Below, in pieces: positions 1,485 to 62,658 of a DNA stretch of 64,000 bases. Numbering within the stretch: the stretch's first letter is position 1; every line of letters begins with the position of its first letter. The stretch comes from Escherichia phage JLBYU22. The notes beneath the pieces were generated by a model. It had not been told where the DNA came from. It worked only from the letters and a program-made list of their open reading frames with translations, and ran no database searches. The DNA is taken from sequence record OK272484.1; one strand, written 5' to 3'. The translations under genes were made by a program, and so were the position numbers.

Positions 1485-1500
1485 TACGGTGCATTCTAAA

Positions 1501-1518
1501 GGCCTGTTTCGGCAGGCC
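1501..1518 (+). terminator. GC-rich hairpin (GGCCTG-loop-CAGGCC) downstream of gene 18
   Basis: Inverted repeat read directly; no strong T-run, so may be an RNA stability element rather than an efficient terminator. Confidence 0.4.
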
Positions 1519-1519
1519 A

Positions 1520-1527
1520 TATAAATA
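1520..1527 (+). promoter_or_regulatory. T4-type late promoter box TATAAATA
   Basis: Exact TATAAATA; T4 late promoters (gp55/gp33-dependent) use this -10 consensus. Confidence 0.6.
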
Positions 1528-1578
1528 CACTATATCCTTAATTCTTTAATTCTATATGCCCTAGGTTAAACATAGGGA

Positions 1579-1586
1579 TATAAATA
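1579..1586 (+). promoter_or_regulatory. T4-type late promoter box TATAAATA upstream of gene 19
   Basis: Exact TATAAATA ~15 nt upstream of GAGG RBS and ATG at 1601. Confidence 0.7.
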
Positions 1587-1600
1587 CTACAGAGGCTAAT

Positions 1601-2092
1601 ATGTTTGTAGATGATGTAACACGAGCGTTTGAATCTGGTGATTTTGCTCGACCTAACTTATTCCAAGTAGAAATTTCTTATCTTGGACAAAATTTTACGT
1701 TTCAATGTAAAGCCACTGCTTTACCAGCTGGTATTGTAGAAAAAATTCCAGTCGGATTTATGAACCGTAAAATTAACGTAGCAGGCGATCGTACATTCGA
1801 TGACTGGACTGTTACAGTAATGAACGATGAAGCTCATGATGCTCGCCAGAAGTTCGTTGATTGGCAAAGCATTGCTGCGGGGCAAGGAAACGAAATTACT
1901 GGTGGAAAACCTGCAGAGTATAAAAAGAGCGCTATCGTTCGTCAATATGCTCGTGACGCTAAAACAGTAACAAAAGAAATTGAAATTAAAGGTCTGTGGC
2001 CTACTAACGTGGGTGAACTTCAATTAGATTGGGATTCAAACAATGAAATCCAAACCTTTGAAGTAACTCTTGCTCTCGATTATTGGGAATAA
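1601..2092 (+). CDS. 19: Tail tube protein gp19
   Basis: 163 aa, same length as T4 gp19; synteny between sheath and portal. Confidence 0.95.
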   Translation: MFVDDVTRAFESGDFARPNLFQVEISYLGQNFTFQCKATALPAGIVEKIPVGFMNRKINVAGDRTFDDWTVTVMNDEAHDARQKFVDWQSIAAGQGNEITGGKPAEYKKSAIVRQYARDAKTVTKEIEIKGLWPTNVGELQLDWDSNNEIQTFEVTLALDYWE

Positions 2093-2099
2093 AATGAAT

Positions 2100-2113
2100 G
2101 GGGAGAAATCCCC
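2100..2113 (+). terminator. Hairpin GGGGA-GAAA-TCCCC after gene 19
   Basis: Inverted repeat with GNRA-type loop read directly. Confidence 0.4.
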
Positions 2114-2124
2114 ATCCTGCTTAA

Positions 2125-3749
<1,625 letters not shown>

Positions 3750-3750
<1 letters not shown>

Positions 3751-3989
3751 TGGAAGGTTTAATTGAAGCTATTAAATCAAACGACCTCGTAGCCGCTCGT
3801 AAATTATTTGTTGAAGCCATGGCTGCAAGAACGACTGATTTAATTAAAGAAGAAAAAATCGCTATCGCTCGTAATTTCTTAATCGAAGGTGAAGAACCTG
3901 ATGACGAGGATGATGACGAAGACGAAGATAGTGATGATAAAGACGACAAAAAAGACAAAGACTCTGACGAAGACGAGGATGATGAATAA
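3750..3989 (+). CDS. 67: Prohead core protein gp67 (acidic C-terminus)
   Basis: 79 aa with poly-Asp/Glu tail; TAATG coupling with gene 20; T4 order 20-67-68-21. Confidence 0.9.
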
Positions 3990-4414
3990 TGCTTCTGATC
4001 CCTGAAACTCATGAATTAGTTCTCGAGAATGTCGAAGCACTTATTCCTGAAGCACAGGGTCGCTTTGACGAATTGTCTTCTGCTTTAAATAAAGACGATA
4101 TAAATACAATTGTCGAGAATATGCTTGATGATGAAACTGATTTAGCGGTTGCATTAGCTTCTATTAATGAAAATATGCCGTTAAATGAATTTATCGTTAA
4201 ACATGTTTCTGCCCGTGGTGAAATTACTCGCACTAAAGATCGCAAAACCCGCGAACGTAATGCATTTCAAACTACCGGGTTGTCTAAAGCAAAACGTAGA
4301 CAAATTGCTCGTAAAGCTACCAAAACGAAGATTGCCAATCCAGCAGGTCAATCTCGTGCTCAGCGTAAGCGTAAAAAAGCTCTTAAACGCCGTAAAGCAT
4401 TAGGATTAAGCTAA
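3989..4414 (+). CDS. 68: Prohead core protein gp68
   Basis: 141 aa as in T4; synteny. Confidence 0.85.
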
Positions 4415-5052
4415 TGAATGAACCCCAATTACTAATTGAAACTTGGGGTCAACCTGGCGAAATTATTGATGGCGTACCAATGCTTGAATCTCATGATGGA
4501 AAAGACTTAGGTTTAAAACCTGGTTTATACATCGAAGGAATATTCATGCAAGCGGAAGTCGTCAATAGAAATAAACGTCTTTATCCAAAACGTATATTAG
4601 AAAAAGCGGTAAAAGACTATATTAATGAGCAAGTTTTAACTAAACAAGCTCTCGGAGAATTAAATCATCCTCCACGCGCTAATGTTGACCCGATGCAAGC
4701 CGCTATCATTATAGAAGATATGTGGTGGAAAGGAAATGACGTATACGGACGAGCTCGTGTTATTGAAGGTGACCATGGTCCTGGAGATAAATTAGCAGCT
4801 AATATTCGTGCCGGATGGATTCCAGGAGTTTCTTCTCGTGGATTAGGTTCATTGACTGACACAAATAAAGGTTATCGTATCGTAAACGAAGGATTCAAAT
4901 TAACTGTAGGTGTTGATGCAGTATGGGGTCCAAGTGCTCCAGATGCATGGGTAACTCCTAAGGAAATTACCGAATCACAGACGGCGGAAGCCGATACAAG
5001 TGCCGATGACGCCTATATGGCTCTCGCAGAGGCCATGAAAAAAGCGTTATAA
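4414..5052 (+). CDS. 21: Prohead core protease gp21
   Basis: 212 aa as in T4 gp21; synteny. Confidence 0.95.
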   Translation: MNEPQLLIETWGQPGEIIDGVPMLESHDGKDLGLKPGLYIEGIFMQAEVVNRNKRLYPKRILEKAVKDYINEQVLTKQALGELNHPPRANVDPMQAAIIIEDMWWKGNDVYGRARVIEGDHGPGDKLAANIRAGWIPGVSSRGLGSLTDTNKGYRIVNEGFKLTVGVDAVWGPSAPDAWVTPKEITESQTAEADTSADDAYMALAEAMKKAL

Positions 5053-5055
5053 ATA
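5048..5055 (+). promoter_or_regulatory. Late promoter box TATAAATA overlapping gene 21 stop, upstream of gene 22
   Basis: Exact TATAAATA; AGGA RBS and ATG 5083 follow. Confidence 0.7.
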
Positions 5056-5082
5056 TTATTATCTAAACAACAGGACTACAAA

Positions 5083-5892
5083 ATGCTTAAAGAACAACTG
5101 ATTGCCGAAGCGCAGAAAATTGATGCTTCCGTTGCTCTTGATAGTATTTTCGAATCAGTTAATATTTCTCCGGAAGCAAAAGAAACTTTCGGCACTGTAT
5201 TCGAAGCTACCGTCAAGCAGCACGCCGTTAAATTAGCTGAATCTCATATCGCTAAAATTGCTGAAAAAGCAGAAGAAGAAGTAGAAAAAAATAAAGAAGA
5301 AGCAGAAGAAAAAGCTGAGAAGAAAATCGCTGAGCAAGCTTCTAAATTCCTTGACCATCTTGCAAAAGAATGGCTCACTGAAAATAAATTAGCAGTAGAT
5401 AAAGGCATCAAAGCCGAACTGTTTGAATCCATGCTTGGTGGATTGAAAGAGCTCTTCGTTGAACACAACGTTGTTGTTCCAGAAGAATCAGTTGATGTTG
5501 TAGCTGAAATGGAAGAAGAACTGCAAGAACATAAAGAAGAATCAGCTCGTCTGTTCGAAGAACTCAATAAGCGTGACGCATATATCAATTATGTGCAGCG
5601 TGAAGTGGCATTGAGCGAAAGTACTAAAGATCTGACTGAGTCTCAAAAAGAAAAAGTCTCTGCTCTGGTCGAAGGTATGGATTATTCAGATGCATTCTCA
5701 AGTAAATTGAGTGCAATCGTAGAAATGGTGAAGAAATCTAATAAAGATGAAAGCACTATTACTGAGAGTATAAATACTCCTGATACTGAAGCAGCCGGAC
5801 TGAATTTCGTCACTGAAGCTGTAGAAGATAAATCTGCACAAGGTGCAGAAGATATTGTAAGTGTATATGCGAAAGTCGCATCTCGTTTCTAA
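5083..5892 (+). CDS. 22: Prohead core scaffold protein gp22
   Basis: 269 aa, Glu/Lys-rich coiled-coil-like composition; synteny. Confidence 0.95.
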   Translation: MLKEQLIAEAQKIDASVALDSIFESVNISPEAKETFGTVFEATVKQHAVKLAESHIAKIAEKAEEEVEKNKEEAEEKAEKKIAEQASKFLDHLAKEWLTENKLAVDKGIKAELFESMLGGLKELFVEHNVVVPEESVDVVAEMEEELQEHKEESARLFEELNKRDAYINYVQREVALSESTKDLTESQKEKVSALVEGMDYSDAFSSKLSAIVEMVKKSNKDESTITESINTPDTEAAGLNFVTEAVEDKSAQGAEDIVSVYAKVASRF

Positions 5893-50646: not shown

Positions 50647-53600
50647 ATGGCCGAGATTAAAAGAAAGTTCAGAGCAGAAGATGGTCTGGACGCAGGTGGT
50701 GATAAAATAATCAACGTAGCTTTAGCTGATCGTGCCGTAGGAACTGACGGTGTTAACGTTGATTACCTAATTCAAGAAAACACAGTTCAACAATACGATC
50801 CAACTCGTGGATATTTAAAAGATTTTGTAATCATTTATGATAACCGCTTTTGGGCTGCTATAAATGATATTCCAAAACCGGCAGGATCTTTTAATAGCGG
50901 ACGCTGGAGAGCATTACGTACCGATGCTAACTGGATTACGGTTTCATCTGGTTCATATCAATTAAAATCTGGCGAAGCAATTTCGGTTAATACTGCAGCT
51001 GGAAATGACATCACATTTACTTTACCATCTACTCCAATTGATGGTGATACTATCGTTCTCCAAGATATTGGAGGAAAACCCGGAGTTAACCAAGTTTTAA
51101 TTGTAGCTCCAGTGCAAAGTATTGTAAACTTTAGAGGTGAACAAGTACGTTCAGTACTAATGACTCATCCAAAGTCACAGCTAGTTTTAATTTTTAGTAA
51201 TCGTCTGTGGCAAATGTATGTAGCTGATTATAGTAGAGAAGCTGTAGTTGTAACACCAGCAAGTCTCTATCAGGCGCAATCTAATGATTTTATCGTACGT
51301 AGATTTACTTCTGCTGCACCAATTAATGTTAAACTTCCAAGATTTGCTAATCATGGAGATATTATTAATTTCGTTGATTTAGATAAACTAAATCCGCTTT
51401 ATCATACAATTGTTACAACATATGATGAAACCACTTCAGTACAAGAAGTTGGAACTCATTCTATTGAAGGCCGTACATCTATTGACGGTTTCTTGATGTA
51501 TGACGATAATGAGAAATTATGGAGATTATTTGACGGGGACAGTAAAGCACGTTTACGTATCATAACAACTAATTCAAACATTCGTCCAAATGAAGAAGTT
51601 ATGGTATTTGGTGCGAATAATGGAACAACTCAAACAATTGAGCTTCAGCTTCCAACTAATATTTCTGTTGGTGATACTGTTAAAATTTCCATGAATTACA
51701 TGAGAAAAGGACAAACAGTTAAAATCAAAGCTGCCGGTGAAGATAAAATTGCTTCTTCAGTTCAATTGCTGCAATTCCCAAAACGTTCAGAGTATCCACC
51801 TGAAGCTGAATGGGTGACTGTTCAAGAATTAGTTTTTAACGGTGAAACTAATTATGTTCCAGTTTTGCAACTTGCTTACATAGAAGATTCTGATGGAAAA
51901 TATTGGGTTGTGCAACAAAATGTTCCAACCGTAGAAAGAGTCGATTCTTTAAACGATTCTACTAGAGCAAGATTAGGCGTGATTGCTTTAGCTACACAAG
52001 CTCAAGCTAATGTCGATTTAGAAAATTCTCCACAAAAAGAATTAGCAATTACTCCAGAAACATTAGCTAACCGTACTGCTACAGAAACTCGCAGAGGTAT
52101 CGCAAGAATAGCAACAACTGCTCAAGTGAATCAGAACACCACATTCTCTTTTGCTGATGATATTATCATCACTCCTAAAAAGCTGAATGAAAGAACTGCT
52201 ACAGAAACTCGCAGAGGTGTTGCTGAAATTGCTACGCAACAGGAAACTAATGCAGGTACTGATGATACTACAATCATCACTCCTAAAAAGCTTCAAGCTC
52301 GTCAGGGTTCTGAATCATTATCTGGTATTGTAACCTTTGTATCTACCGCAGGAGCTACTCCAGCTTCTAGTCGTGAATTAAATGGTACAAATGTTTACAA
52401 TAAAAACACTAATAATTTAGTTGTTTCGCCTAAAGCTTTGGATCAGTATAAAGCTACTCCAACGCAACAAGGTGCAGTAATTTTAGCAGTTGAAAGTGAA
52501 GTAATTGCTGGACAGAGCCAAGAAGGATGGGCAAATGCGGTTGTAACGCCAGAAACGTTACATAAAAAGACATCAACTGATGGAAGAATTGGTTTAATTG
52601 AAATTGCTACACAAAGTGAAGTTAATACAGGAACTGATTATACTCGTGCAGTCACTCCTAAAACTTTAAATGACCGTAAAGCAACTGAAAGTTTAAGTGG
52701 TATAGCTGAAATTGCTACACAAGTTGAATTCGACGCAGGCGTCGACGATACTCGTATCTCTACACCATTAAAAATTAAAACTAGATTTAATAGTACTGAT
52801 CGTACTTCTGTTGTTGCTCTATCTGGATTAGTTGAATCAGGAACTCTCTGGGACCATTATACCCTTAATATTCTTGAAGCAAATGAGACACAGCGTGGTA
52901 CACTTCGTGTGGCTACACAAGTTGAAGCTGCTGCAGGAACATTAGATAATGTTTTAATAACTCCTAAAAAGCTTTTAGGTACTAAATCTACCGAATCGCA
53001 GGAAGGTGTTATTAAAGTTGCAACTCAGTCTGAAACTGTGACTGGAACGTCAGCAAATACTGCTGTATCTCCAAAAAATTTAAAATGGATTGTGCAGAGT
53101 GAACCTACTTGGGCAGCTACTACTGCGATAAGAGGCTTTGTTAAAACTTCATCTGGTTCAATTACATTCGTTGGTAATGATACAGTTGGTTCAACACAGT
53201 CGTTAGAATTATACGAGAAAAATAGCTATGCGGTATCACCATATGAATTAAACCGTGTATTAGCAAATTATTTGCCGTTAAAAGCAAAAGCTGTAGATAG
53301 TAATTTATTGGATGGTCTAGATTCATCTCAGTTCATTCGTAGGGACATTGCGCAGACAGTTAATGGTTCACTAACCTTAACCCAACAAACGAATCTGAGT
53401 GCCCCTCTTGTATCATCTAGTACTGCTGCGTTTGGTGGTTCAGTTTCGGCAAATAGTACATTAACTATTTCTAATACTGGAACGGCAACTCGTCTGATTT
53501 TTGAGAAAGGACCTCAAACTGGAACTAACCCAGCGCAGACGATGACTATCAGAGTTTGGGGAAATCAGTTTGGTGGTGGATCAGATACAACACGTTCTAC

Positions 53601-54516
53601 TGTATTTGAAGTTGGTGATGAAACATCTAATCACTTTTATTCTCAACGTAATAAAGCTGGTAATATTACGTTTAGCATTAATGGTACTGTAATGCCAATA
53701 AATGTTAACGCTTCCGGTTCATTGAATGCGAATGGCGTAGCAACATTTGGTAGTTCAGTTACAGCCAATGGTGAATTTATCAGCAAGTCTGCAAATGCTT
53801 TCAGAGCAATAAATGGCGATTATGGATTCTTTATTCGCAATGATGCTGCTAACACATATTTTATGCTTACTGCATCGGGTGATCAGACTGGCGGATTTAA
53901 TGGATTACGTCCTTTAGCTATTAATAATGCATCTGGTCAAGTAACTATTGGTGAAAGCTTAATCATTGCCAAAGGTGCTACTATAAATTCAGGTGGTTTA
54001 ACTGTTAACTCGAGAATTCGTTCTCAGGGCACTAAAACCTCTGACTTATATACCCGTGCGCCAACATCTGATACCGTAGGATTCTGGTCAATTGATATTA
54101 ATGATTCAGCTACTTATAACCAGTTCCCAGGTTATTTTAAAATGGTTGAAAAAACTAATGAAGTGACTGGGCTTCCGTACCTAGAACGTGGCGAAGAAGT
54201 TAAATCTCCTGGTACATTGACTCAGTTTGGTAACACACTTGATTCGCTTTACCAAGATTGGATTACTTATCCAACGACTCCAGAAGCACGTACCACTCGC
54301 TGGACACGTACATGGCAGAAAACCAAAAACTCTTGGTCAAGTTTTGTTCAGGTATTTGATGGAGGTAACCCTCCTCAACCATCTGATATCGGTGCTTTAC
54401 CATCTGATAATGCTACAATGGGGAATCTTACTATTCGTGATTTCTTACGAATTGGTAATGTTCGCATTATTCCTGACCCAGTGAATAAAACTGTTAAATT
54501 TGAATGGGTTGAATAA
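50647..54516 (+). CDS. 34: Long tail fibre proximal subunit gp34
   Basis: 1289 aa as in T4 gp34; internal repeated ETRRG(I/V)A.IAT motifs. Confidence 0.97.
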   Translation: MAEIKRKFRAEDGLDAGGDKIINVALADRAVGTDGVNVDYLIQENTVQQYDPTRGYLKDFVIIYDNRFWAAINDIPKPAGSFNSGRWRALRTDANWITVSSGSYQLKSGEAISVNTAAGNDITFTLPSTPIDGDTIVLQDIGGKPGVNQVLIVAPVQSIVNFRGEQVRSVLMTHPKSQLVLIFSNRLWQMYVADYSREAVVVTPASLYQAQSNDFIVRRFTSAAPINVKLPRFANHGDIINFVDLDKLNPLYHTIVTTYDETTSVQEVGTHSIEGRTSIDGFLMYDDNEKLWRLFDGDSKARLRIITTNSNIRPNEEVMVFGANNGTTQTIELQLPTNISVGDTVKISMNYMRKGQTVKIKAAGEDKIASSVQLLQFPKRSEYPPEAEWVTVQELVFNGETNYVPVLQLAYIEDSDGKYWVVQQNVPTVERVDSLNDSTRARLGVIALATQAQANVDLENSPQKELAITPETLANRTATETRRGIARIATTAQVNQNTTFSFADDIIITPKKLNERTATETRRGVAEIATQQETNAGTDDTTIITPKKLQARQGSESLSGIVTFVSTAGATPASSRELNGTNVYNKNTNNLVVSPKALDQYKATPTQQGAVILAVESEVIAGQSQEGWANAVVTPETLHKKTSTDGRIGLIEIATQSEVNTGTDYTRAVTPKTLNDRKATESLSGIAEIATQVEFDAGVDDTRISTPLKIKTRFNSTDRTSVVALSGLVESGTLWDHYTLNILEANETQRGTLRVATQVEAAAGTLDNVLITPKKLLGTKSTESQEGVIKVATQSETVTGTSANTAVSPKNLKWIVQSEPTWAATTAIRGFVKTSSGSITFVGNDTVGSTQSLELYEKNSYAVSPYELNRVLANYLPLKAKAVDSNLLDGLDSSQFIRRDIAQTVNGSLTLTQQTNLSAPLVSSSTAAFGGSVSANSTLTISNTGTATRLIFEKGPQTGTNPAQTMTIRVWGNQFGGGSDTTRSTVFEVGDETSNHFYSQRNKAGNITFSINGTVMPINVNASGSLNANGVATFGSSVTANGEFISKSANAFRAINGDYGFFIRNDAANTYFMLTASGDQTGGFNGLRPLAINNASGQVTIGESLIIAKGATINSGGLTVNSRIRSQGTKTSDLYTRAPTSDTVGFWSIDINDSATYNQFPGYFKMVEKTNEVTGLPYLERGEEVKSPGTLTQFGNTLDSLYQDWITYPTTPEARTTRWTRTWQKTKNSWSSFVQVFDGGNPPQPSDIGALPSDNATMGNLTIRDFLRIGNVRIIPDPVNKTVKFEWVE

Positions 54517-54524
54517 GAGGTATT

Positions 54525-55640
54525 ATGGAAAAATTTATGGCAGAGTTTGGACAAGGATATGTCCAAACGCCATTTTTATCGGAAAGCAATTCAGTAAGAT
54601 ATAAAATAAGCATAGCGGGTTCTTGCCCGCTTTCTACAGCAGGACCATACGTTAAATTTCAGGATAATCCTGTAGGAAGTCAAACATTTAGCGCAGGCCT
54701 TCATTTAAGAGTTTTTGACCCTTCCACCGGAGCATTAGTTGATAGTAAATCATATGCTTTTTCGACTTCAAATGATACTACATCAGCTGCCTTTGTTAGT
54801 TTCATGAATTCTTTGACGAATAACAGACTTGTTGCTATATTAACTAGCGGAAAGGTTAATTTTCCTCCTGAAGTAGTATCTTGGTTAAGAACCGCAGGAA
54901 CGTCTGCTTTTCCATCTGATTCTTTATTGTCAAGATTTGACGTATCATATGCTGCCTTTTATACTTCTTCTAAAAGAGCTATTGCATTAGAACATGTTAA
55001 ACTAAGTAATAGAAAAAGCACAGATGATTATCAAACTATTTTAGATGTTGTATTTGACAGTTTAGAGGACGTTGGAGCCACAGGATTTCCAAAAAGAACG
55101 TACGAAAGCGTTGAGCAATTTATGTCAGCGGTTGGTGGAACTAATAACGAAATTGCACGTCTACCGACTTCGGCTGCTATAAGTAAACTTTCTGATTATA
55201 ATTTAATTCCTGGCGATGTTCTTTATCTTAAAGCTCAGTTATATGCTGATGCCGATTTACTCGCGCTTGGAACTACAAATATATCTATCCGTTTTTATAA
55301 TGCATCGAATGGATATATTTCTTCAACACAAGCTGAGTTTACCGGGCAAGCTGGGTCTTGGGAATTAAAAGAAGATTATGTAGTTGTTCCAGAAAATGCA
55401 GTAGGATTTACGATATATGCACAGAGAACTGCGCAAGCTGGTCAAGGTGGCATGAGAAATTTAAGCTTTTCTGAAGTGTCAAGAAATGGAGGTATTTCGA
55501 AACCTGCTGAATTTGGCGTCAATGGCATTCGTGTTAATTATATCTGTGAATCTGCTTCACCTCCGGATATAATGGTACTTCCTACGCAAGCATCGTCTAA
55601 AACTGGTAAAGTGTTTGGGCAAGAATTTAGAGAAGTTTAA
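54525..55640 (+). CDS. 35: Long tail fibre hinge protein gp35
   Basis: 371 aa; synteny 34-35-36-37. Confidence 0.9.
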   Translation: MEKFMAEFGQGYVQTPFLSESNSVRYKISIAGSCPLSTAGPYVKFQDNPVGSQTFSAGLHLRVFDPSTGALVDSKSYAFSTSNDTTSAAFVSFMNSLTNNRLVAILTSGKVNFPPEVVSWLRTAGTSAFPSDSLLSRFDVSYAAFYTSSKRAIALEHVKLSNRKSTDDYQTILDVVFDSLEDVGATGFPKRTYESVEQFMSAVGGTNNEIARLPTSAAISKLSDYNLIPGDVLYLKAQLYADADLLALGTTNISIRFYNASNGYISSTQAEFTGQAGSWELKEDYVVVPENAVGFTIYAQRTAQAGQGGMRNLSFSEVSRNGGISKPAEFGVNGIRVNYICESASPPDIMVLPTQASSKTGKVFGQEFREV

Positions 55641-55645
55641 ATTGA

Positions 55646-55663
55646 GGGAGCCTTCGGGTTCCC
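55646..55663 (+). terminator. Terminator hairpin GGGAGCC-TTCG-GGTTCCC + T-run after gene 35
   Basis: Stem with one G-U pair followed by TTTTTCTTT. Confidence 0.7.
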
Positions 55664-55671
55664 TTTTTCTT

Positions 55672-55679
55672 TATAAATA
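55672..55679 (+). promoter_or_regulatory. Late promoter box TATAAATA upstream of gene 36
   Basis: Exact TATAAATA 24 nt upstream of ATG 55703. Confidence 0.7.
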
Positions 55680-55702
55680 CTATTAAAATAAAGGGGCATA
55701 CA

Positions 55703-56368
55703 ATGGCTGATTTAAAAGTAGGTTCAACAACCGGAGGCTCTGTCATTTGGCATCAAGGAAATTTTCCATTGAATCCAGCCGGTGACGATGTACTCTATAA
55801 ATCATTTAAAATATATTCAGAATACAATAAACCACAAGCTGTTGATAACGATTTCGTTTCTAAAGCTAATGGTGGTACTTATGCATCAAAGGTAACATTT
55901 AATGCTGGTGTTCAAGTACCATATGCTGTAAACAATACAAACCCGTGCGGTATTTATCCAGGTAACGGTGATAATGCTACTTTTGCTGTAGCAAATATCG
56001 ATATTGTTTCGTGGAATGGTATTGGTTTTAAATCATCACAGGGTTCAGCAGCCCGAACTGTTGTAATTAATGCACGTAATGGTGATATTAGCACAAAAGG
56101 TGTTGTATCAGCTGCGGGTCAAGTAAGAAGTGATGCAGCTGCTCCTATAGCAGCGAATGACCTTACTAGAAAGGACTATGTTGACGGAGCAATAAATACT
56201 GTTACGGCAAATGCGAACTCTAGAGTGTTACGATCTGGTGATACTATGACTGGAAACTTAACCGCACCAAACTTTTTCTCACAGAATCCTGCATCTCAAC
56301 CTTCACATGTTCCACGATTTGACCAAATCGTAATTAAGGATTCTGTTCAAGATTTCGGCTATTATTAA
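55703..56368 (+). CDS. 36: Long tail fibre distal connector gp36
   Basis: 221 aa as in T4 gp36. Confidence 0.9.
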   Translation: MADLKVGSTTGGSVIWHQGNFPLNPAGDDVLYKSFKIYSEYNKPQAVDNDFVSKANGGTYASKVTFNAGVQVPYAVNNTNPCGIYPGNGDNATFAVANIDIVSWNGIGFKSSQGSAARTVVINARNGDISTKGVVSAAGQVRSDAAAPIAANDLTRKDYVDGAINTVTANANSRVLRSGDTMTGNLTAPNFFSQNPASQPSHVPRFDQIVIKDSVQDFGYY

Positions 56369-56376
56369 GAGGACTT

Positions 56377-59300
56377 ATGGCTACTTTAAAACAAATACAA
56401 TTTAAAAGAAGCAAAACCGCAGGTGCACGTCCTGCTGCTTCAGTATTAGCCGAAGGTGAATTGGCTATAAACTTAAAAGATAGAACAATTTTTACTAAAG
56501 ATGATTCAGGAAATATCATTGACTTAAGCATTTCCGCTGGCGGTAATATCAGTGGAAATATCACTCAAACTGGTGATTATACACAGACTGGAAAATTTAA
56601 TTTAATTGGCCCGCAGATTATAGCAAGTGGTGGATATATTGAGTTTAATTATCGTACTACTGGAAGTGGGGCTTGGTCCGGTCAACACACTGCAAAAGCT
56701 CCAATTTTTGTAGATTTAAGCTCAGCTACTTCCACATCTGAATATAATCCTATAATTAAACAGCGCTTTAAAGATGGAACTTTTTCATTAGGTACTTTAG
56801 TTTCTGAAGGTTCGTTAAAGATTCATTATATTGATGAAACTGGTCAATCTAAATATTGGACATTTGCGCGCTCAGGTAATTTTCAAGTTGATTCTGGTAA
56901 TTTATTAGTATCTGGTGGGTATTTAGTCGCTCAGAGTAATATTGAAACAAGAACAGGTTCTTTGATTGGTCCATCTGTTGTAACTAAAAATATTTCATTT
57001 GATACGAAAGCGTTTGGACAATACGATTCGCAGTCATTAGTTCAATATGTTTATCCTGGAACTGGTGAAACAAACGGAATTAATTACCTTCGTAAATTCC
57101 GTGCAAAATCCGGTGGTACGATTTATCATGAATTAGCTTCTGCACAAACCGGAAAAAGTGATGAACTGTCTTGGTGGACCGGTAATACAGCCGTTAATAA
57201 ACAAATGGGCCTTCGCAATGATGGGTCTTTAGTATTGCGACGCTCACTCGCAATTGGTACAATTACAACAGATGAAAACATTAATAATTACGGCTCCACT
57301 GGAGCAATGGGTGAATGCTATATAGTCATTGGAGATGCCGCAACTGGTATATCATATAAAAGATCTGGTGTATATGATTTAGTTGCTAATGGTCTTTCTA
57401 TCGCGTCTATTACTCCTGACAGTTTCCGTAGTACTCGTAAAGCATTATTTGGACGCTCAGAAGATCAAGGTACAACATGGATTATGCCTGGAACGAATGC
57501 TGCATTTTTATCAGTTCAAACACAGGCTGATGAAAACAGTGCTGGAGACGGTCAGACACATATTGGCTATAATTCAGGCGGAAAAATGAACCACTATTTC
57601 CGCGGTAAAGGCAAAACTAATATTAATACTCAAGAAGGCATGGAAGTTAACCCGGGTATTCTTAAAATAGTAACCGGTGCAAATAATGTAATGTTTTATG
57701 CTGATGGCGGTATTACATCCACTAAGCAGCTTTCAATATATAATGGTGTATATTTAGCAGCTAATAATTCTACTGCTGGGCTAACATTCGCTCCAACTAC
57801 TACAATTGATGGCACTAAGCAAATTTTGTGGGAAGGTGGTAAGCGCGCTGGACAGAATAAAAGCTATGTAACTGTTAAAGCGTGGGGTAATTCATTTAAC
57901 GCATCTGGCGATCGTAATCGTGAAACAGTTTTTGAAGTAGCTGACGGACAAGGTTATTATTTTTATTCCCAGCGTGTAGCCCCAAGCGGCTCAGAAACTA
58001 CTGGTCCTGTTGTAACTCAGTTTGCTGGAGCTGTTAATGCTAGAGGAAGTATTATTACTGACGGAAGTTTTAAAGTTAATGGATTGAGCACTTTAGTCGG
58101 TAATGTTACCATGTCTAATGGTTTGTTTGTCCAAGGTGGTTCTTCTATTACTGGACAAGTTAAAATCGGCGGAACTGCAGATGCATTAAGAATTTGGAAT
58201 GCTGAATATGGTGCAATTTTCCGTCGTTCTGAAGATAAGCTTTATATTATTCCAACCCCGCAGAATGCTGGTGAATCAGGTGGTATTTCTAATTTACGTC
58301 CGTTCTATATTACATTAAGTACTGGTAAAGTTTCCATGGATCATGATGTAGATATCGGCGGCGGTAGATTTAAAGTAGAAGTGGCTGGAACTACGGCTGG
58401 TCAACGTATTATAGTTAATGCAGCGAGCGATGCTATTAGAATAAATGCTCCAACACAAGAGTCTTCTAACTTCATTCAAGGACGTAAGGCTGATGTGAAT
58501 AAATGGTATTTGGGTATTGGCGATGGCGGCAACGTCGTTCGTATGCACAGCTACACATATTCACATGGTATTGCATTAAATTCTGATTCTGTCGATATTA
58601 CTAAGCCTCTTAAAGTCGGAAACGCCCAACTAGGAACTGACGGTAATATTACCAATGGTTCAGGAAACTTTGCCAACTTAAATACCACGTTAAATCGTAA
58701 AGTTAATTCTGGATTTATTACTTATGGAGCAACCTCTGGATGGTATAAGTTTGCAACAGTAACAATGCCACAATCCACTTCGACAGTCTTCTTTAAAATA
58801 GTTGGAGGTTCTGGATTTAATAGCGGATTATTCACACAATGTAATATTGCTGAAATTGTTTTACGTACTAGTAATGAAAGACCTGCTGACTTAAATGCTG
58901 CATTATACACAAGAACAATTGGAGCTGCATTTAAAGATATTGCAGTTAATAACGTCTCTGGAGATACATATGACATTTATGTTTCTGCTGGAACATATTG
59001 TAATCAATTGGCTTGTGAGTGGTCATGTACCGAAAATGCTACTGTTAGTGTTATTGGTATTAACTCATCTACACAATCGCCTGTAGATGCTCTTCCAGAC
59101 ACAGCAGTTAACGGTCAAGTTGCTAATGTTCTTAATAACTTGGTTGATCGCGGTAAAGTTAAGCGTTATGAAGCCGATTCTGAAATAGCTATTAATAGCC
59201 AAACCGGTATTCGTATCAGAAGCAACAGCGATAAAACTGGTTCTGTTGCTACAATGCTACGAAATGATGGCGGTAGTTTTTATATTCTGTTTACAGATAA

Positions 59301-60138
59301 AAATGCCACCGATGGCGCAGCAACTGTTAATGGCGATTGGAATAGTAAACGTCCTTTCGCAATTAACTTAACAACCGGCAAAGTGATGATGAATAATGGC
59401 ATAGCTGTTCGCAGCGCTGCTTTATTCTATAATAGCATAAACGTCAAAGATAATGGTTCTATTAACTTTGATAAATCAGGCGCTAACCCGAGAAATATGA
59501 GAATATTTCATGCTGGCGATGCTTCTCGCGGTAACCGTATTGAAATTGCCGATGAAACTAACTATATTGCTTACTTTGAAAAAACACCAGGTGGAGCTAA
59601 TCGCTTTGTAGTAAATAATGCTACTGTAGCTGGTGTTAATCAAATGAATTCATTTGGTATTAACATCAATAACGCACTTGGTGGAAATAGTATAGCGTTT
59701 GGCGATAATGACACTGGTATTAAGCAAAATGGCGATGGATTATTAGACATATATGCGAATGGTGTACAGACTTTCCGTTTCCAAAACGGTGATTTGTACT
59801 CATACAAAAATATAAATGCTCCAAACGTTTATACTCGTTCTGATATTCGTTTAAAATCTAACTTCAAACCTATCGAAAATGCACTTGATAAAGTTGAAAA
59901 ACTTAACGGTGTCATTTACGATAAAGCTGAATATATCGGTGGAGAGGCAATTGAAACTGAAGCGGGTATTGTAGCTCAAACGTTACAAGACGTTTTACCA
60001 GAAGCCGTCCGTGAAACAGAAGACAGCAAGGGTAATAAAATACTCACTGTTTCTTCTCAAGCCCAGATTGCTCTTCTGGTTGAAGCTGTGAAAACGCTTT
60101 CTTCTCGTGTAAAAGAACTTGAATCTAAACTTATGTAA
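56377..60138 (+). CDS. 37: Long tail fibre distal subunit gp37, T2-type with C-terminal intramolecular chaperone domain
   Basis: 1253 aa (T4 gp37 is 1026 aa); C-terminal ~100 aa begins SDIRLK (Ser/Lys dyad-type self-cleaving chaperone motif). Confidence 0.9.
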   Translation: MATLKQIQFKRSKTAGARPAASVLAEGELAINLKDRTIFTKDDSGNIIDLSISAGGNISGNITQTGDYTQTGKFNLIGPQIIASGGYIEFNYRTTGSGAWSGQHTAKAPIFVDLSSATSTSEYNPIIKQRFKDGTFSLGTLVSEGSLKIHYIDETGQSKYWTFARSGNFQVDSGNLLVSGGYLVAQSNIETRTGSLIGPSVVTKNISFDTKAFGQYDSQSLVQYVYPGTGETNGINYLRKFRAKSGGTIYHELASAQTGKSDELSWWTGNTAVNKQMGLRNDGSLVLRRSLAIGTITTDENINNYGSTGAMGECYIVIGDAATGISYKRSGVYDLVANGLSIASITPDSFRSTRKALFGRSEDQGTTWIMPGTNAAFLSVQTQADENSAGDGQTHIGYNSGGKMNHYFRGKGKTNINTQEGMEVNPGILKIVTGANNVMFYADGGITSTKQLSIYNGVYLAANNSTAGLTFAPTTTIDGTKQILWEGGKRAGQNKSYVTVKAWGNSFNASGDRNRETVFEVADGQGYYFYSQRVAPSGSETTGPVVTQFAGAVNARGSIITDGSFKVNGLSTLVGNVTMSNGLFVQGGSSITGQVKIGGTADALRIWNAEYGAIFRRSEDKLYIIPTPQNAGESGGISNLRPFYITLSTGKVSMDHDVDIGGGRFKVEVAGTTAGQRIIVNAASDAIRINAPTQESSNFIQGRKADVNKWYLGIGDGGNVVRMHSYTYSHGIALNSDSVDITKPLKVGNAQLGTDGNITNGSGNFANLNTTLNRKVNSGFITYGATSGWYKFATVTMPQSTSTVFFKIVGGSGFNSGLFTQCNIAEIVLRTSNERPADLNAALYTRTIGAAFKDIAVNNVSGDTYDIYVSAGTYCNQLACEWSCTENATVSVIGINSSTQSPVDALPDTAVNGQVANVLNNLVDRGKVKRYEADSEIAINSQTGIRIRSNSDKTGSVATMLRNDGGSFYILFTDKNATDGAATVNGDWNSKRPFAINLTTGKVMMNNGIAVRSAALFYNSINVKDNGSINFDKSGANPRNMRIFHAGDASRGNRIEIADETNYIAYFEKTPGGANRFVVNNATVAGVNQMNSFGININNALGGNSIAFGDNDTGIKQNGDGLLDIYANGVQTFRFQNGDLYSYKNINAPNVYTRSDIRLKSNFKPIENALDKVEKLNGVIYDKAEYIGGEAIETEAGIVAQTLQDVLPEAVRETEDSKGNKILTVSSQAQIALLVEAVKTLSSRVKELESKLM
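59839..60135 (+). other. Predicted self-cleaving intramolecular chaperone domain of gp37 (residues 1155-1253)
   Basis: SDIRLKSNF at the domain start, by analogy with endosialidase and T5 pb1 C-terminal chaperone domains. Confidence 0.6.
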
Positions 60139-60140
60139 AA

Positions 60141-60156
60141 GAGGGCTTCGGCCCTC
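60141..60156 (+). terminator. Hairpin GAGGGC-TTCG-GCCCTC after gene 37
   Basis: 6-bp perfect stem with UUCG loop. Confidence 0.6.
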
Positions 60157-60168
60157 TAAGGATTTTTA

Positions 60169-60954
60169 ATGGCAATTGTAGGTGTTCCTGGCTGGATTGG
60201 TGAATCTGCCGTGAATGAAACTGGACAGCGTTGGATGGATGCTGCGATGAGAGCAGTTCGTGTTTCAGTTCCTGGTTGGATGAGCTCAATGGCTGGGCAA
60301 TCTAAAGAAGTATATTATAGCATTGGTGCTAGCAATTCTTACAATAAAGACACACTAATAAATTGGATAAAAGCCCAAGGAAGCACTCCTGTTGTTATTA
60401 CTATTACAGGAAATATTGTTTCTCAATCTACTGGTGTTCCATGCTTAGATTTTCCTAGCTCATTAACTAATGCATACGTGACACTTAATATCAATTCAGG
60501 CGTGCATGTTTGGGGCCGTGGCGGGAATGGCGGAAATAACTCTGCTGGCGGAGCAGGAGGAACTGCAATAAATAACGGAATTGGAACTAGATTACGTATT
60601 AACAACAATGGTGTTATCGCAGGCGGCGGTGGCGGCGGTGGCGGCGGATACTACTCTCCTTTTTCACAAATGAAATTGACTTTTGGCGGAGGAGGCGGTC
60701 GTCCATTTGGTGCTGCCGGTGGGTCTGCTAATATGGAACAGGGTGCTACTGCTGGTACTATTTCTGCGCCAGGTAAAGGGTCTGTCAACGGTATCTATAA
60801 TGGCGGGAATGGTGGTGATGCCGGAGCCGCAGGAGGTAAATGTAATATTCGCGGTCAAGGATCAGAATATAACGGTGGTGCTGCGGGTAAAGCTGTTACT
60901 GGTAATGCTCCAACTTGGACTAAAGTTGGCACAATATATGGTTCAAGAGTATAA
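60169..60954 (+). CDS. 38: gp38 receptor-binding adhesin (T2-type) with glycine-rich motifs
   Basis: 261 aa (T4 gp38 chaperone is 183 aa); C-terminal half has poly-Gly blocks separated by short variable segments. Confidence 0.85.
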   Translation: MAIVGVPGWIGESAVNETGQRWMDAAMRAVRVSVPGWMSSMAGQSKEVYYSIGASNSYNKDTLINWIKAQGSTPVVITITGNIVSQSTGVPCLDFPSSLTNAYVTLNINSGVHVWGRGGNGGNNSAGGAGGTAINNGIGTRLRINNNGVIAGGGGGGGGGYYSPFSQMKLTFGGGGGRPFGAAGGSANMEQGATAGTISAPGKGSVNGIYNGGNGGDAGAAGGKCNIRGQGSEYNGGAAGKAVTGNAPTWTKVGTIYGSRV

Positions 60955-60986
60955 TTTTTGAATAAATATCCTTAAAAGGAGGGTCT

Positions 60987-61643
60987 ATGGCAGCACCTAG
61001 AATATCACTTTCGCCCTCTGATATTCTATTTGGTGTTCTAGATCGCTTGTTCAAAGATAACGCTACCGGGAAAGTTCTTGCTTCCCGGGTAGCTGTCGTA
61101 ATTCTTTTATTTATGATGGCGATTGTTTGGTATAGGGGAGATAGTTTCTTTGAGTACTATAAGCAATCAAAGTATGAAACATACAGTGAAATTATTGAAA
61201 AGGAAAGAAATGCACGCTTTGAATCTGTCGCCCTGGAACAACTCCAGATAGTTCATATATCATCTGAGGCAGACTTTAGTGCGGTGTATTCTTTCCGCCC
61301 TAAAAACTTAAACTATTTTGTTGATATTATAGCATACGAAGGAAGATTACCTTCGACAATAACAGAAAAATCACTTGGAGGATATCCTGTTGATAAAACT
61401 ATGGATGAATATACAGTTCATTTAAATGGACGTCATTATTATTCCGATTCAAAATTTGCTTTTTTACCAACTAAAAAGCCTACTCCCGAAATAAACTACA
61501 TGTACAGTTGTCCATATTTTAATTTGGATAATATCTATGCTGGAACGATAACCATGTACTGGTATAGAAATGATCATATAAGTAATGACCGCCTTGAATC
61601 AATATGTGCTCAGGCGGCCAGAATATTAGGAAGGGCTAAATAA
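60987..61643 (+). CDS. t: Holin T
   Basis: 218 aa; single N-terminal TM helix (VAVVILLFMMAIVW) and large periplasmic domain. Confidence 0.95.
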   Translation: MAAPRISLSPSDILFGVLDRLFKDNATGKVLASRVAVVILLFMMAIVWYRGDSFFEYYKQSKYETYSEIIEKERNARFESVALEQLQIVHISSEADFSAVYSFRPKNLNYFVDIIAYEGRLPSTITEKSLGGYPVDKTMDEYTVHLNGRHYYSDSKFAFLPTKKPTPEINYMYSCPYFNLDNIYAGTITMYWYRNDHISNDRLESICAQAARILGRAK

Positions 61644-61916
61644 TTATTTGTTCGTATACATCTCTAGATATCGATATACACCCTCAAAACCCTCGTTGAA
61701 TTCGTCGATGAGGGTTTTCTTATCTTCTTGAGTTAATTCAGAAACAATTTTACGGAATGAATTCTGATTTAATTTTCTACCTTCATGCGTTACTCCAATC
61801 TCATTCAGAAATGCAATAAAATTAGCACGATTCTCAACAATATCTTCTCTGGAAAATTTAATCAAAATAGACGCAACAGTAATAATTTCACGAACTGTAT
61901 CAATGTTTTTATTCAT
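61644..61916 (-). CDS. asiA: AsiA anti-sigma70 factor
   Basis: 90 aa as in T4 AsiA. Confidence 0.95.
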   Translation of the reverse strand: MNKNIDTVREIITVASILIKFSREDIVENRANFIAFLNEIGVTHEGRKLNQNSFRKIVSELTQEDKKTLIDEFNEGFEGVYRYLEMYTNK

Positions 61917-61928
61917 TAACTATACCAC

Positions 61929-62081
61929 TCAATTAGTTGACTTTGTTATAATATCATCAGACGCTTGATTTGTAAACTGGTCTGTGTTATTTTCTTCAAA
62001 AATTTTTTCTACGAATTCCTTGAACGACTTACGTTCCTGAGCTACATTATGCTCGATTACTTTTTCAAGATTATGACTCAT
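61929..62081 (-). CDS. Small 50-aa protein between asiA and arn; not in ORF track
   Basis: ATGA overlap with the arn stop; found by hand translation. Confidence 0.5.
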   Translation of the reverse strand: MSHNLEKVIEHNVAQERKSFKEFVEKIFEENNTDQFTNQASDDIITKSTN

Positions 62082-62356
62082 TCGAAATAATCTTCAATTT
62101 CATAATCATGGACGTAAATCATTATAGTTTTTAATACATCATCAATACTTTTTCCTGGAGCTGGAATTACGTAGAAATATCCTGCTTTTGAGAGGTCTTT
62201 ATAAGTTCCAATCAAGAAATCATTATTCTCAAGATGTAGTTCTTCAACTAATTCATTAACAATTGAATGGTATAGGTTTGGTAGAAACTTATATAGCTTT
62301 TCTAGAATATCAATTTTGATTGTGTATTGAACCACGGATTGAGAATCAATAATCAT
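62078..62356 (-). CDS. arn: Arn-like anti-restriction protein (inhibits McrBC in T4)
   Basis: 92 aa and position right after asiA as in T4; assigned by size and synteny. Confidence 0.7.
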   Translation of the reverse strand: MIIDSQSVVQYTIKIDILEKLYKFLPNLYHSIVNELVEELHLENNDFLIGTYKDLSKAGYFYVIPAPGKSIDDVLKTIMIYVHDYEIEDYFE

Positions 62357-62439
62357 AGACCTTCCCCTTATGTTTCTGTTTGCGATTAGATTCTTTAAAC
62401 GCTTTCTTCTTATCCATATGAACAGAAGCTTTATTAAAA

Positions 62440-62658
62440 TTATGTTTTGCGACTAAATTGTTCATAGTGCTGAATTACCTCTCTCAAACATTTGCATGTG
62501 AATGAAAACTTTTTAGCTACACCACATTCAAATATATGTTCTCTTAAATCGTGTGTATCCGTATATCCCATCTCAACAATAAAATGCCGTATTAGATTTT
62601 TATCTTTATCATTGAGAGAATTAAAATAATCAGATTTTGAATTAATTTCCCTGGCCAA
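62440..62658 (-). CDS. Hypothetical 72-aa protein
   Basis: ORF in arn-motA early cluster. Confidence 0.5.
   Translation of the reverse strand: MAREINSKSDYFNSLNDKDKNLIRHFIVEMGYTDTHDLREHIFECGVAKKFSFTCKCLREVIQHYEQFSRKT

Follow-up and report, generated by a model that had tools for sequence, protein, structure and literature searches.

A T2-type tail-fibre tip module with apparently T6-like specificity segments in Escherichia phage JLBYU22

In T4, gp38 is an assembly chaperone that is released after gp37 has folded, and the gp37 tip binds the receptor. For T2 and T6, C-terminal proteolytic cleavage of gp37 and a capping gp38 have been described (Trojet 2011, citing Drexler 1986), T2 gp37 being the protein whose C-terminal processing was reported (Drexler, Riede and Henning 1986; the system also appears in Riede et al. 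1987). The structural template for this fibre type is Salmonella phage S16 (PDB 6F45; Dunne et al. 2018), with a gp37 trimer at the tip, a chaperone domain removed by autocleavage, and just one gp38, which has Trp prongs and a polyglycine-II (PGII) sandwich that bears distal loops; one gp38 sits on each gp37 trimer (PMC6851490). S16 gp37 cleaves itself at DLNVS^SDRRIKK, and this cleavage is stated to expose the docking surface (PMC7917993), while the N-terminus of gp38 must fit its cognate gp37 (PMC12892980). Tsx-binding adhesins have T6-like variable segments in common, and in PST a few residue changes in such segments can add recognition of OmpA or LPS (Trojet 2011). Among other Peptidase S74 proteins, T5 pb1 is cut at the Thr1263-Ser1264 bond by a mechanism involving Lys1269 (PMC4690869).

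We analysed a 64,000-nucleotide stretch of Escherichia phage JLBYU22 (OK272484.1; the window), and find the open reading frames of genes 37 and 38 exactly where a first-pass annotation had put them, with the product lengths of 1253 and 261 aa that it had given. The genes for gp34, gp35 and gp36 flank the module upstream and the holin gene t lies downstream.

55703..56368, + strand: gene 36, distal hinge connector and attachment partner of the gp37 N-terminus (ORF; Pfam Phage_T4_gp36, E 1.3e-43; PHROG 1425)
56377..60138, + strand: gene 37, long tail fibre distal subunit precursor, 1253 aa, 133.9 kDa (ORF; PHROG 1699 over its full length, 1020 bits)
60169..60954, + strand: gene 38, tail-fibre adhesin, 261 aa, 25.8 kDa (Pfam GP38 and Gp38_N)

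The gene 37 product is an exact match to UGO56562.1 of JLBYU22, and the source record already carries the same annotation for genes 37 and 38. The homology signals, as read from the sequence, are strong and not a product of chance, and the module is an ordinary, well-described T2/T6-like tail-fibre tip of an E. coli phage: textbook T-even biology, with nothing new in it. Its gene order and architecture are those of T2. Among its closest known counterparts are Escherichia phage FriedrichMiescher (Bas39) and its relatives JK38, QOTSP, A2, teqhal and slur02, with ~95-96% DNA identity across the module.

gp37 matches the Pfam families Gp34_trimer, gp37_trimer and Peptidase_S74, and contains the following regions, the tip lying within the distal shaft.

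56377..58347, + strand: residues 1-657, proximal shaft common to T2 (74%), K3 and T4 (59%) (BLASTP)
58609..59838, + strand: residues 745-1154, K3-like distal shaft (BLASTP)
59641..59838, + strand: residues 1089-1154, fibre tip ending ...NAPNVYTR, the predicted gp38 docking end once cleavage has occurred (alignment to the tip of S16 gp37, 6f45_A)
59839..60135, + strand: residues 1155-1253, predicted self-cleaving intramolecular chaperone (Peptidase_S74; Pfam PF13884), 99 aa, 10.8 kDa

By sequence comparison the protein is a mosaic of a T2-like N-terminus and a K3-like distal shaft. Residues 1-160 are almost identical to T2 (BLASTP), whereas T2 gp37, at 1341 aa, has another distal shaft (~50% identity over residues 745-1016, BLASTP). 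K3 gp37 (X04747), which is 71% identical overall, reaches ~95% in the distal shaft and over residues 745-1253 as a whole, both values estimated by eye, but its residues 60-200 are T4-like and not T2-like. The 66-residue tip is shared with Bas39 at 62/66 positions, with K3 at 57/66 and with T2 at 54/66; gp37 of Bas39 has 1260 aa, scattered changes, and Ile in place of Thr before the cleavage site. With T6 gp37 (994 aa) the similarity is limited to the first 66 residues and to a chaperone domain of 40% identity. The close relative TH09 carries a T4-type cassette at the same locus, including a T4-type gp38 of 183 aa, and blastn at E <= 1e-10 finds no match in it to positions 58303-60961.

The first-pass annotation had proposed a self-cleaving chaperone of ~100 aa starting at SDIRLK, with cleavage before Ser1155, and both proposals agree with what we observe. 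The last 99 residues of gp37 begin at Ser1155, and residues 1155-1212 match PF13884 over its whole profile (1-58 of 58; E 3.4e-15; 56.5 bits, the curated cut-off for Peptidase_S74 being 22 bits). The domain is identical to that of Bas39 and its relatives at 99/99 positions and to those of T2 and K3 at 98/99 each. The dyad Ser1155/Lys1160, with Lys five residues after Ser, lies within SDIRLK at the domain start and is invariant in 11 chaperone domains that have diverged to 41-61% identity; a profile built from those 11 homologues matches S16 gp37 and the MyRF ICA domain (7dc3, E 4e-7), and gp37 tip and chaperone domain together align to the S16 structure 6f45_A. In related loci the domain has the same C-terminal placement in 23/23 fibre genes, and at all 17 of 17 loci the gp38-like gene is directly preceded by a gene whose product has such a domain at its end, with a (D/N)VYIR^SDxxLK junction. 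The predicted scissile bond, Arg1154-Ser1155, falls at the same place as the S16 site and the Thr1263-Ser1264 bond of T5 pb1, Ser1155 and Lys1160 corresponding to Ser1264 and Lys1269 of the latter. Autoproteolytic release would follow trimerisation, as suggested by S16 and by T2, where the domain is the same at 98/99 positions and processing of gp37 has been reported.

The sole oddity of the module is Thr1153 at P2, where Ile stands in 28/28 junctions compared (5/5 named phages and 23/23 metagenomic fibre genes). An effect on cleavage or docking is possible because this position belongs to the strand that reportedly makes up the docking face for gp38 (PMC7917993), and one could imagine a chaperone domain that is retained or poorly cleaved, with an altered tip or reduced loading of gp38. 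We consider this very unlikely, given that the catalytic Ser/Lys pair is preserved and the domain otherwise unaltered (99/99 against Bas39), that members of the wider family differ from one another just before the scissile bond (Val-Ser in S16, Thr at P1 in T5 pb1), and that a viable virus was isolated; Thr1153 might also be a sequencing error.

gp38 is an adhesin by its family matches, with PF05268 (GP38) covering residues 47-261 (profile 1-218 of 218, E 3.5e-72) and PF21721 (Gp38_N) residues 1-42 (E 8e-18), and it aligns to the adhesin structures of S16 (6f45_D, E 2.7e-49) and of PP01 gp38 (9v85, E 1e-33). Its parts are given below; the boundaries of glycine-rich motifs (GRM) and hypervariable segments (HVS) are our own, after the scheme of five motifs and four segments in Trojet 2011, and the name of the central beta-helix region is borrowed from the S16 structure (PMC6851490).

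60169..60306, + strand: residues 1-46, attachment domain, which contains Trp9, Trp22 and Trp37 (sliding-window DNA identity to T2 of 92% or more)
60307..60513, + strand: residues 47-115, linker and central beta-helix region (DNA like neither T2 nor T6, ~58-65%)
60514..60888, + strand: residues 116-240, PGII sandwich region (conservation of motifs versus variable segments)
Glycine-rich motifs, by residue: GRM1 116-122, GRM2 152-160, GRM3 173-181, GRM4 212-216, GRM5 236-240
Variable segments, by residue: HVS1 123-151, HVS2 161-172, HVS3 182-211, HVS4 217-235

Trp9, Trp22 and Trp37 are invariant among this phage, T2 and T6 and align to the S16 tryptophans, whose role as prongs is known from the S16 structure (PMC6851490). 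Glycine makes up 23% of gp38 and 35% of residues 112-245, with blocks at 116-122, 152-160, 173-177, 212-216 and 236-240, and the GC content of the PGII sandwich region is 0.52 against 0.36 for the whole window. The alternation of glycine-rich blocks and variable segments, part of the first-pass description, holds up in an 11-sequence gp38 alignment, where the five motifs are 84-98% conserved and the four segments between them 39-66%. The likeness to S16 has its limits, S16 belonging to another genus and using another receptor, OmpC, with DLNVS at its pre-cleavage tip where NVYTR stands here, and with many substitutions in gp38 despite the E-value.

Homologues of this gp38 in teqhal, teqsoen, RB18 and QOTSP are annotated as in T4, the labels in related records including 'distal long tail fiber assembly catalyst' and 'tail assembly protein', and the 1987 K3 record names gp37 the 'receptor recognizing protein'. 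A T2-type gp38 may also assist gp37 assembly, as in co-expression work on S16, which would count towards the same reading, that gp38 is an assembly chaperone only, released once gp37 has folded, and that the gp37 tip binds the receptor. This reading has hardly any chance of being right. The difference from T4 asserted by the first-pass annotation is borne out by the alignments against T2, T6 and T4 that it had called for: T4 gp38 is indeed 183 aa long and has no detectable similarity to this protein (BLASTP E = 19), which instead shows full-length similarity to the adhesin family and also matches the S16 and PP01 adhesin structures, while the chaperone domain is T2-like. T4 gp37 lacks a chaperone domain, and its good alignment to this gp37 is confined to residues 1-657 (BLASTP), so the C-terminal receptor-binding region of T4 is without counterpart here, a removable chaperone domain standing in its place. 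Moreover, T6 g38 amber mutants give virions of normal morphology that are unable to adsorb (Trojet 2011), and the chaperone labels are names taken over from T4. Presence at the virion fibre tip and a role in adsorption would accord with the literature on T2, T6, S16 and PP01, and the arrangement of an adhesin gene directly 3' of a gp37 gene that ends in a predicted cleavable chaperone domain recurs at 17/17 related loci.

That gp38 variable loops set host range, as the first-pass annotation supposed, is the established model (Trojet 2011; PMC6851490; PMC12892980). Its label of a 'T2-type' module fits the architecture alone. In sliding-window identity, the 5' end of g38 is T2-like and the gene is T6-like from GRM2 on; across 60624-60900, which encodes HVS2-4, DNA identity is 72-88% to T6 against 33-52% to T2, and the HVS2-4 peptides are near-identical to those of the T6 group. 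Thus the architecture is T2-type and segments HVS2-4, by sequence, are T6-like, the GRM scaffold being that of T6 as well. T6 gp38, which is Tsx-specific (Trojet et al. 2011), differs in its N-terminal and beta-helix parts, and overall gp38 identity is 64%. In addition, gp38 is 100% identical to that of Bas39 and its named relatives, and the same protein occurs in at least 14 phage records in all among the matches listed; the primary receptor of Bas39 is Tsx (PMC8594841, supplement). Since HVS2-4 are T6-like and an identical gp38 occurs in Tsx-dependent Bas39, we predict that on E. coli K-12 this phage most likely uses the nucleoside channel Tsx as its primary receptor, and not the FadL of T2. 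gp37 differs from its Bas39 counterpart (~95% DNA identity), and therefore the transfer of the receptor goes by gp38 identity alone; the added OmpA or LPS recognition seen in PST, with its few changes in T6-like segments, also speaks against too firm an assignment.

K3 gp38 recognises OmpA, in agreement with Trojet 2011. It could be argued that specificity follows the T2/K3-like parts, so that FadL or OmpF, from the 'T2-type' label, or OmpA, from the K3-like gp37, would be the primary receptor: the gp38 N-terminus (its first 33 residues identical to T2), the gp37 tip and the chaperone domain are all of that kind, and HVS1, which like the beta-helix region is not T6-like, is nearer to T2-group sequences than to T6. 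We regard this as improbable. HVS2-4 of T2 are unrelated to those found here, in Bas39 an identical gp38 accompanies Tsx dependence, and in this fibre type the distal gp37 shaft does not determine specificity (Trojet 2011; PMC6851490).

We are highly confident that this T2-type Tequatrovirus has its distal receptor-recognition module at this locus and that the module would work as follows, each step being drawn from homologues. Transcription of genes 36, 37 and 38 probably begins at a late promoter 5' of gene 36. Three gp37 chains would form the distal half-fibre, folded with the help of their own C-terminal 99-residue chaperone domain, and after correct trimer formation Ser1155, activated by Lys1160, would cut Arg1154-Ser1155 in every chain, letting the chaperone trimer depart. 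On the blunt ...NVYTR tip thus exposed, a single gp38 monomer would dock via three N-terminal helices with Trp9, Trp22 and Trp37, and the rigid PGII sandwich formed by the conserved glycine-rich motifs would display loops HVS1-4, whose binding to the primary receptor would set host range. Like the Peptidase S74 domains of K1F endosialidase, T5 pb1 and MyRF ICA, the chaperone is C-terminal to a trimeric beta-structure and has a Ser-x4-Lys dyad, with release after trimer folding, predicted in this case; unlike in those systems, the predicted cleavage would create a surface on which a separate adhesin docks, and not expose the receptor-binding domain itself.

55644-55665: UUCG hairpin with a T run, preceding the late promoter motif (terminator-like scan)
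55672..55679, + strand: T4-type late promoter motif TATAAATA, exact match, upstream of gene 36
60140..60157, + strand: 7-bp hairpin with a UUCG loop between genes 37 and 38 (terminator-like scan match)
60158-60162, + strand: AAGGA, gene 38 ribosome-binding site, directly 3' of the preceding hairpin

By analogy with T4 gene organisation, the promoter motif is the probable start of a 36-37-38 late transcript. The hairpin between genes 37 and 38 has a fold energy of -13.4 kcal/mol, with a z-score of only -1.6. Its sequence is the same in T2 and Bas39, and the K3 record X04747 annotates the corresponding stem-loop and ribosome-binding site between its own genes 37 and 38.

Genes 37 and 38 of JLBYU22 make up a textbook T2-type receptor-recognition module, one that is already known, already annotated in its source record, and adds no new principle. 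They lie within a canonical T-even long-tail-fibre block, every member of which is backed by Pfam and PHROG matches:

50647-54516: gp34
54525-55640: gp35
55703-56368: gp36
56377-60138, plus strand: gene 37, 1253 aa
60169-60954, plus strand: gene 38, 261 aa
60987-61643: holin t

Both reading frames are as the first-pass annotation had described them, with gene 37 beginning exactly at 56377 and gene 38 encoding 261 aa. Exact protein look-up identifies gp37 as UGO56562.1, the 'putative long tail fiber distal subunit' of JLBYU22, and gp38 as its 'putative receptor-recognizing protein', and finds an identical gp38 sequence on 21 contigs, slur02 and Bas39 (the BASEL phage FriedrichMiescher) among them. 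Module DNA is 95-96% identical to that of JK38, QOTSP, A2, teqhal and FriedrichMiescher. Given the JLBYU22 annotation and these relatives, the module was therefore already public, and annotated much as first proposed. A literature search found no paper on phage JLBYU22, NCBIfam returned no family for gp37 or gp38, Rfam at gathering thresholds gave no match across 54000-62500, and a direct-repeat search in the module found short pairs only, at chance level. In the neighboring gp35, residues 58-127 match the Pfam family ILEI (interleukin-like EMT inducer, PF15711) with an E of 3.4e-8, above the curated cut-off.

Residues 47-261 of gp38 match the Pfam GP38 adhesin family (E 3.5e-72) and residues 1-42 match Gp38_N (E 8e-18). 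Full-length gp38 aligns with the adhesin in the tip structure of Salmonella phage S16 (6f45_D, E 2.7e-49), and also with the receptor-binding domain of PP01 gp38 (9v85, E 1e-33). It shows no similarity to the 183-aa gp38 chaperone of T4 (E = 19), as expected from the distinction originally drawn between the two proteins. In S16, three gp38 tryptophans are seated in pockets of the gp37 trimer (PMC6851490); their counterparts here, W9, W22 and W37, are invariant in JLBYU22, T2 and T6. The predicted alternation of glycine-rich blocks and variable segments is borne out as well. Residues 112-245 are 35% glycine, and conservation, measured in an 11-sequence alignment as the share of sequences that have the JLBYU22 residue, is 0.84-0.98 in the glycine-rich motifs (GRM1 0.94, GRM2 0.89, GRM3 0.98, GRM4 0.84, GRM5 0.91) versus 0.39-0.66 in the hypervariable segments between them (HVS1 0.66, HVS2 0.39, HVS3 0.47, HVS4 0.50). 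This is the design described for gp38 by Trojet et al. (2011) and explained structurally as a polyglycine-II sandwich presenting distal loops, a fold that is hard to predict (PMC6851490). G+C reaches 0.49 in gene 38 and 0.52 in its glycine-rich part because of GGN codons, against 0.36 for the whole window. Homologues and the literature suggest that gp38 is probably carried in virions. In several related records the adhesin is called an 'assembly catalyst', a recurring annotation error in which the name is inherited from T4. Among gp38 relatives on viral contigs, one (L009, 4998-5831) has 17 residues, HVS2 included, duplicated in tandem (...YYSPFSQMRLTFGGGGG twice), which is an example of rearrangement at glycine-motif repeats, and another (L013, 4992-5795) has Tyr for Trp at 3/3 'prong' positions of the attachment domain.

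The T2-type label holds for the architecture of the module but not for its specificity. Sliding-window DNA comparison against T2 and T6 resolves g38 as a three-part chimera that is T6-like from GRM2 onward:

60100-60300: end of g37, intergenic hairpin and first ~45 g38 codons; T2 92-100%, T6 lower
60300-60620: beta-helix region, GRM1 and HVS1; T2 ~58-65%, T6 about 37-70%
60624-60900: GRM2 onward; T2 33-52%, T6 72-88%

The HVS2-4 peptides (YYSPFSQMKLTF, GSANMEQGATAGTISAPGKGSVNGIYN and KCNIRGQGSEY) are near-identical to their T6 counterparts, and the T6 set of variable segments is common to Tsx-binding adhesins (Trojet et al. 2011). Bas39, whose gp38 is 100% identical to that of JLBYU22, is listed with Tsx as its primary receptor and the deep LPS core as its terminal receptor (PMC8594841 supplement). 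Because T6-like segments are shared by Tsx binders and the identical gp38 occurs in Tsx-listed Bas39, these homologues and the published work make Tsx, and not the FadL of T2, the most likely primary receptor. The initial interpretation is thus supported overall, with T2 specificity set aside and the receptor refined to Tsx. The T2-identical N-terminus of gp38 is accompanied by a T2/K3-like gp37 tip, in line with published evidence that the N-terminal ~113 residues of gp38 must fit the cognate gp37 (PMC12892980). The module sets which bacteria JLBYU22 can adsorb to, and correct adhesin typing serves both host-range prediction and the design of phage-therapy cocktails. With a Tsx-type adhesin, cross-resistance with T6-like phages is to be expected, and bacteria defective in tsx (E. 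coli B REL606, for example) should escape infection.

In gp37, residues 1155-1212 match Pfam Peptidase_S74 ('chaperone of endosialidase') across the entire profile (1-58/58; E 3.4e-15; 56.5 bits versus a cut-off of 22). Since the profile is matched from its position 1 at residue 1155, the domain begins at the Ser of SDIRLK, where a ~100-aa chaperone had been proposed to start; 99 residues (10.8 kDa) extend from there to the stop codon. In T5 pb1, Lys1269 activates Ser1264 for scission of the Thr1263|Ser1264 bond; this needs a trimer that has formed correctly, and Ser1264 stays on the departing chaperone domain (PMC4690869). S16 gp37, the nearest homologue of known structure, is cleaved at DLNVS^SDRRIKK, and release of its last 113 residues bares the gp38 docking surface (PMC7917993). 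HMMER pairs ...VYTR-SDIRLKS of JLBYU22 with ...LNVS-SDRRIKK of S16, and the predicted scissile bond is therefore Arg1154|Ser1155, with Lys1160 as base. The Ser and Lys of this dyad are invariant in an alignment of 11 chaperone domains that takes in T6 and metagenomic relatives sharing only 41-61% identity. A profile of these domains picks up MyRF at its self-cleaving ICA domain (7dc3, E 4e-7) and none of the T5 pb1 chains in the PDB; T5 pb1 is linked through Pfam S74 and the mechanism published for it. The direct matches to 6F45, 9V85 and 7DC3, together with the curated families, decide the identity of the module. The chaperone domain is identical in Bas39 (99/99) and nearly so in T2 and K3 (98/99 each), and C-terminal proteolytic processing of T2 gp37 is credited by Trojet et al. 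(2011) to Drexler, Riede and Henning (1986). T4 gp37 aligns well over residues 1-657 only and is without such a domain, which upholds the contrast with T4. From homologues and the literature, we infer that JLBYU22 gp37 probably cleaves itself.

Among 17 viral-contig loci encoding a gp38 relative, the gene directly upstream ends in a chaperone domain every time (17/17), with the junction (D/N)VYIR^SDxxLK. The self-cleaving gp37 end therefore goes hand in hand with the gp38 attachment domain, a pairing that fits a mechanism where cleavage makes the docking site. Larger relatives on 176-180 kb contigs have two consecutive fibre genes, each ending in a self-cleaving chaperone domain (L016 and L018-L022, about 150-5520), and two loci (L023 and L024, 4992-6200) have two short chaperone-ended genes in tandem.

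The sole feature of the module not documented before is Thr1153. This codon of gp37 (59833-59835) is ACT, placing Thr two residues before the predicted bond in NVYTR|SDIRLK. The corresponding residue is Ile in 28/28 compared junctions and Thr in 0/28, the set being T2, T6, K3, Bas39, JK38 and 23 chaperone-bearing fibre genes of related loci. The Thr may be a sequencing error. The strand holding this residue is reported to make up the gp38 docking face (PMC7917993), and we expect the change to be tolerated because residues ahead of the cut vary in the wider family (S16, T5). It is highly improbable that Thr1153 alters cleavage kinetics or gp38 loading and, with the hybrid adhesin (T2/other-like HVS1, T6-like HVS2-4), leads to modified or dual receptor use.

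Like g38, gp37 is a mosaic:

residues 1-160: nearly identical to T2
up to residue ~657: common to T2 (74%), K3 and T4 (59%)
residues 745-1253: ~95% identical to K3 (by eye); T2 50% over 745-1016

Similarity to T6 gp37 is confined to the first 66 residues and to the chaperone domain (40% identical). The module is another recombinant of known parts: its N-terminus resembles T2, its shaft K3 and its specificity loops T6. Phage TH09, which is 99.8% identical to the window over the first 20 kb but only about 95% in the flanks at the fibre locus, was expected to hold the same module. It has a T4-type cassette instead, encoding a 183-aa T4-type gp38 (L007 4705-5256, minus strand), and 58303-60961 of the window has no match in TH09 (L006/L007). 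Two alternative distal cassettes thus swap at one locus in otherwise similar genomes, a kind of exchange known in T-even phages for many years. The Shigella phage JK38 record splits gp37 into two CDS that overlap (L025 501-3221 and 3208-4992), in a region about 730 bp longer than gene 37 here; an insertion plus a frameshift, or else a faulty assembly, could account for this.

Expression signals in the block are the following:

50605: late-promoter motif TATAAATA, exact match, before gene 34
55672: late-promoter motif TATAAATA, exact match, before gene 36
60140-60157: 7-bp UUCG hairpin, then AAGGA, between genes 37 and 38; -13.4 kcal/mol

No exact late-promoter motif occurs between genes 36 and 38. 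T2 and Bas39 have exactly this 37/38 hairpin, and in the K3 record the corresponding stem-loop and ribosome-binding site are annotated at this junction. The stability of the hairpin is not significantly higher than that of shuffled sequence (z -1.6), and so we take it as a conserved feature only. Directly after gene 35 there is a 9-bp UUCG hairpin with a T run, followed at once by the TATAAATA of gene 36 (55644-55679). Just downstream of holin t, a hairpin with a 14-bp stem (61686-61718, plus strand) lies inside a convergent 90-aa ORF (61644-61916, minus strand), whose syntenic counterpart in Bas39 is annotated as an 'anti-sigma70 protein'.
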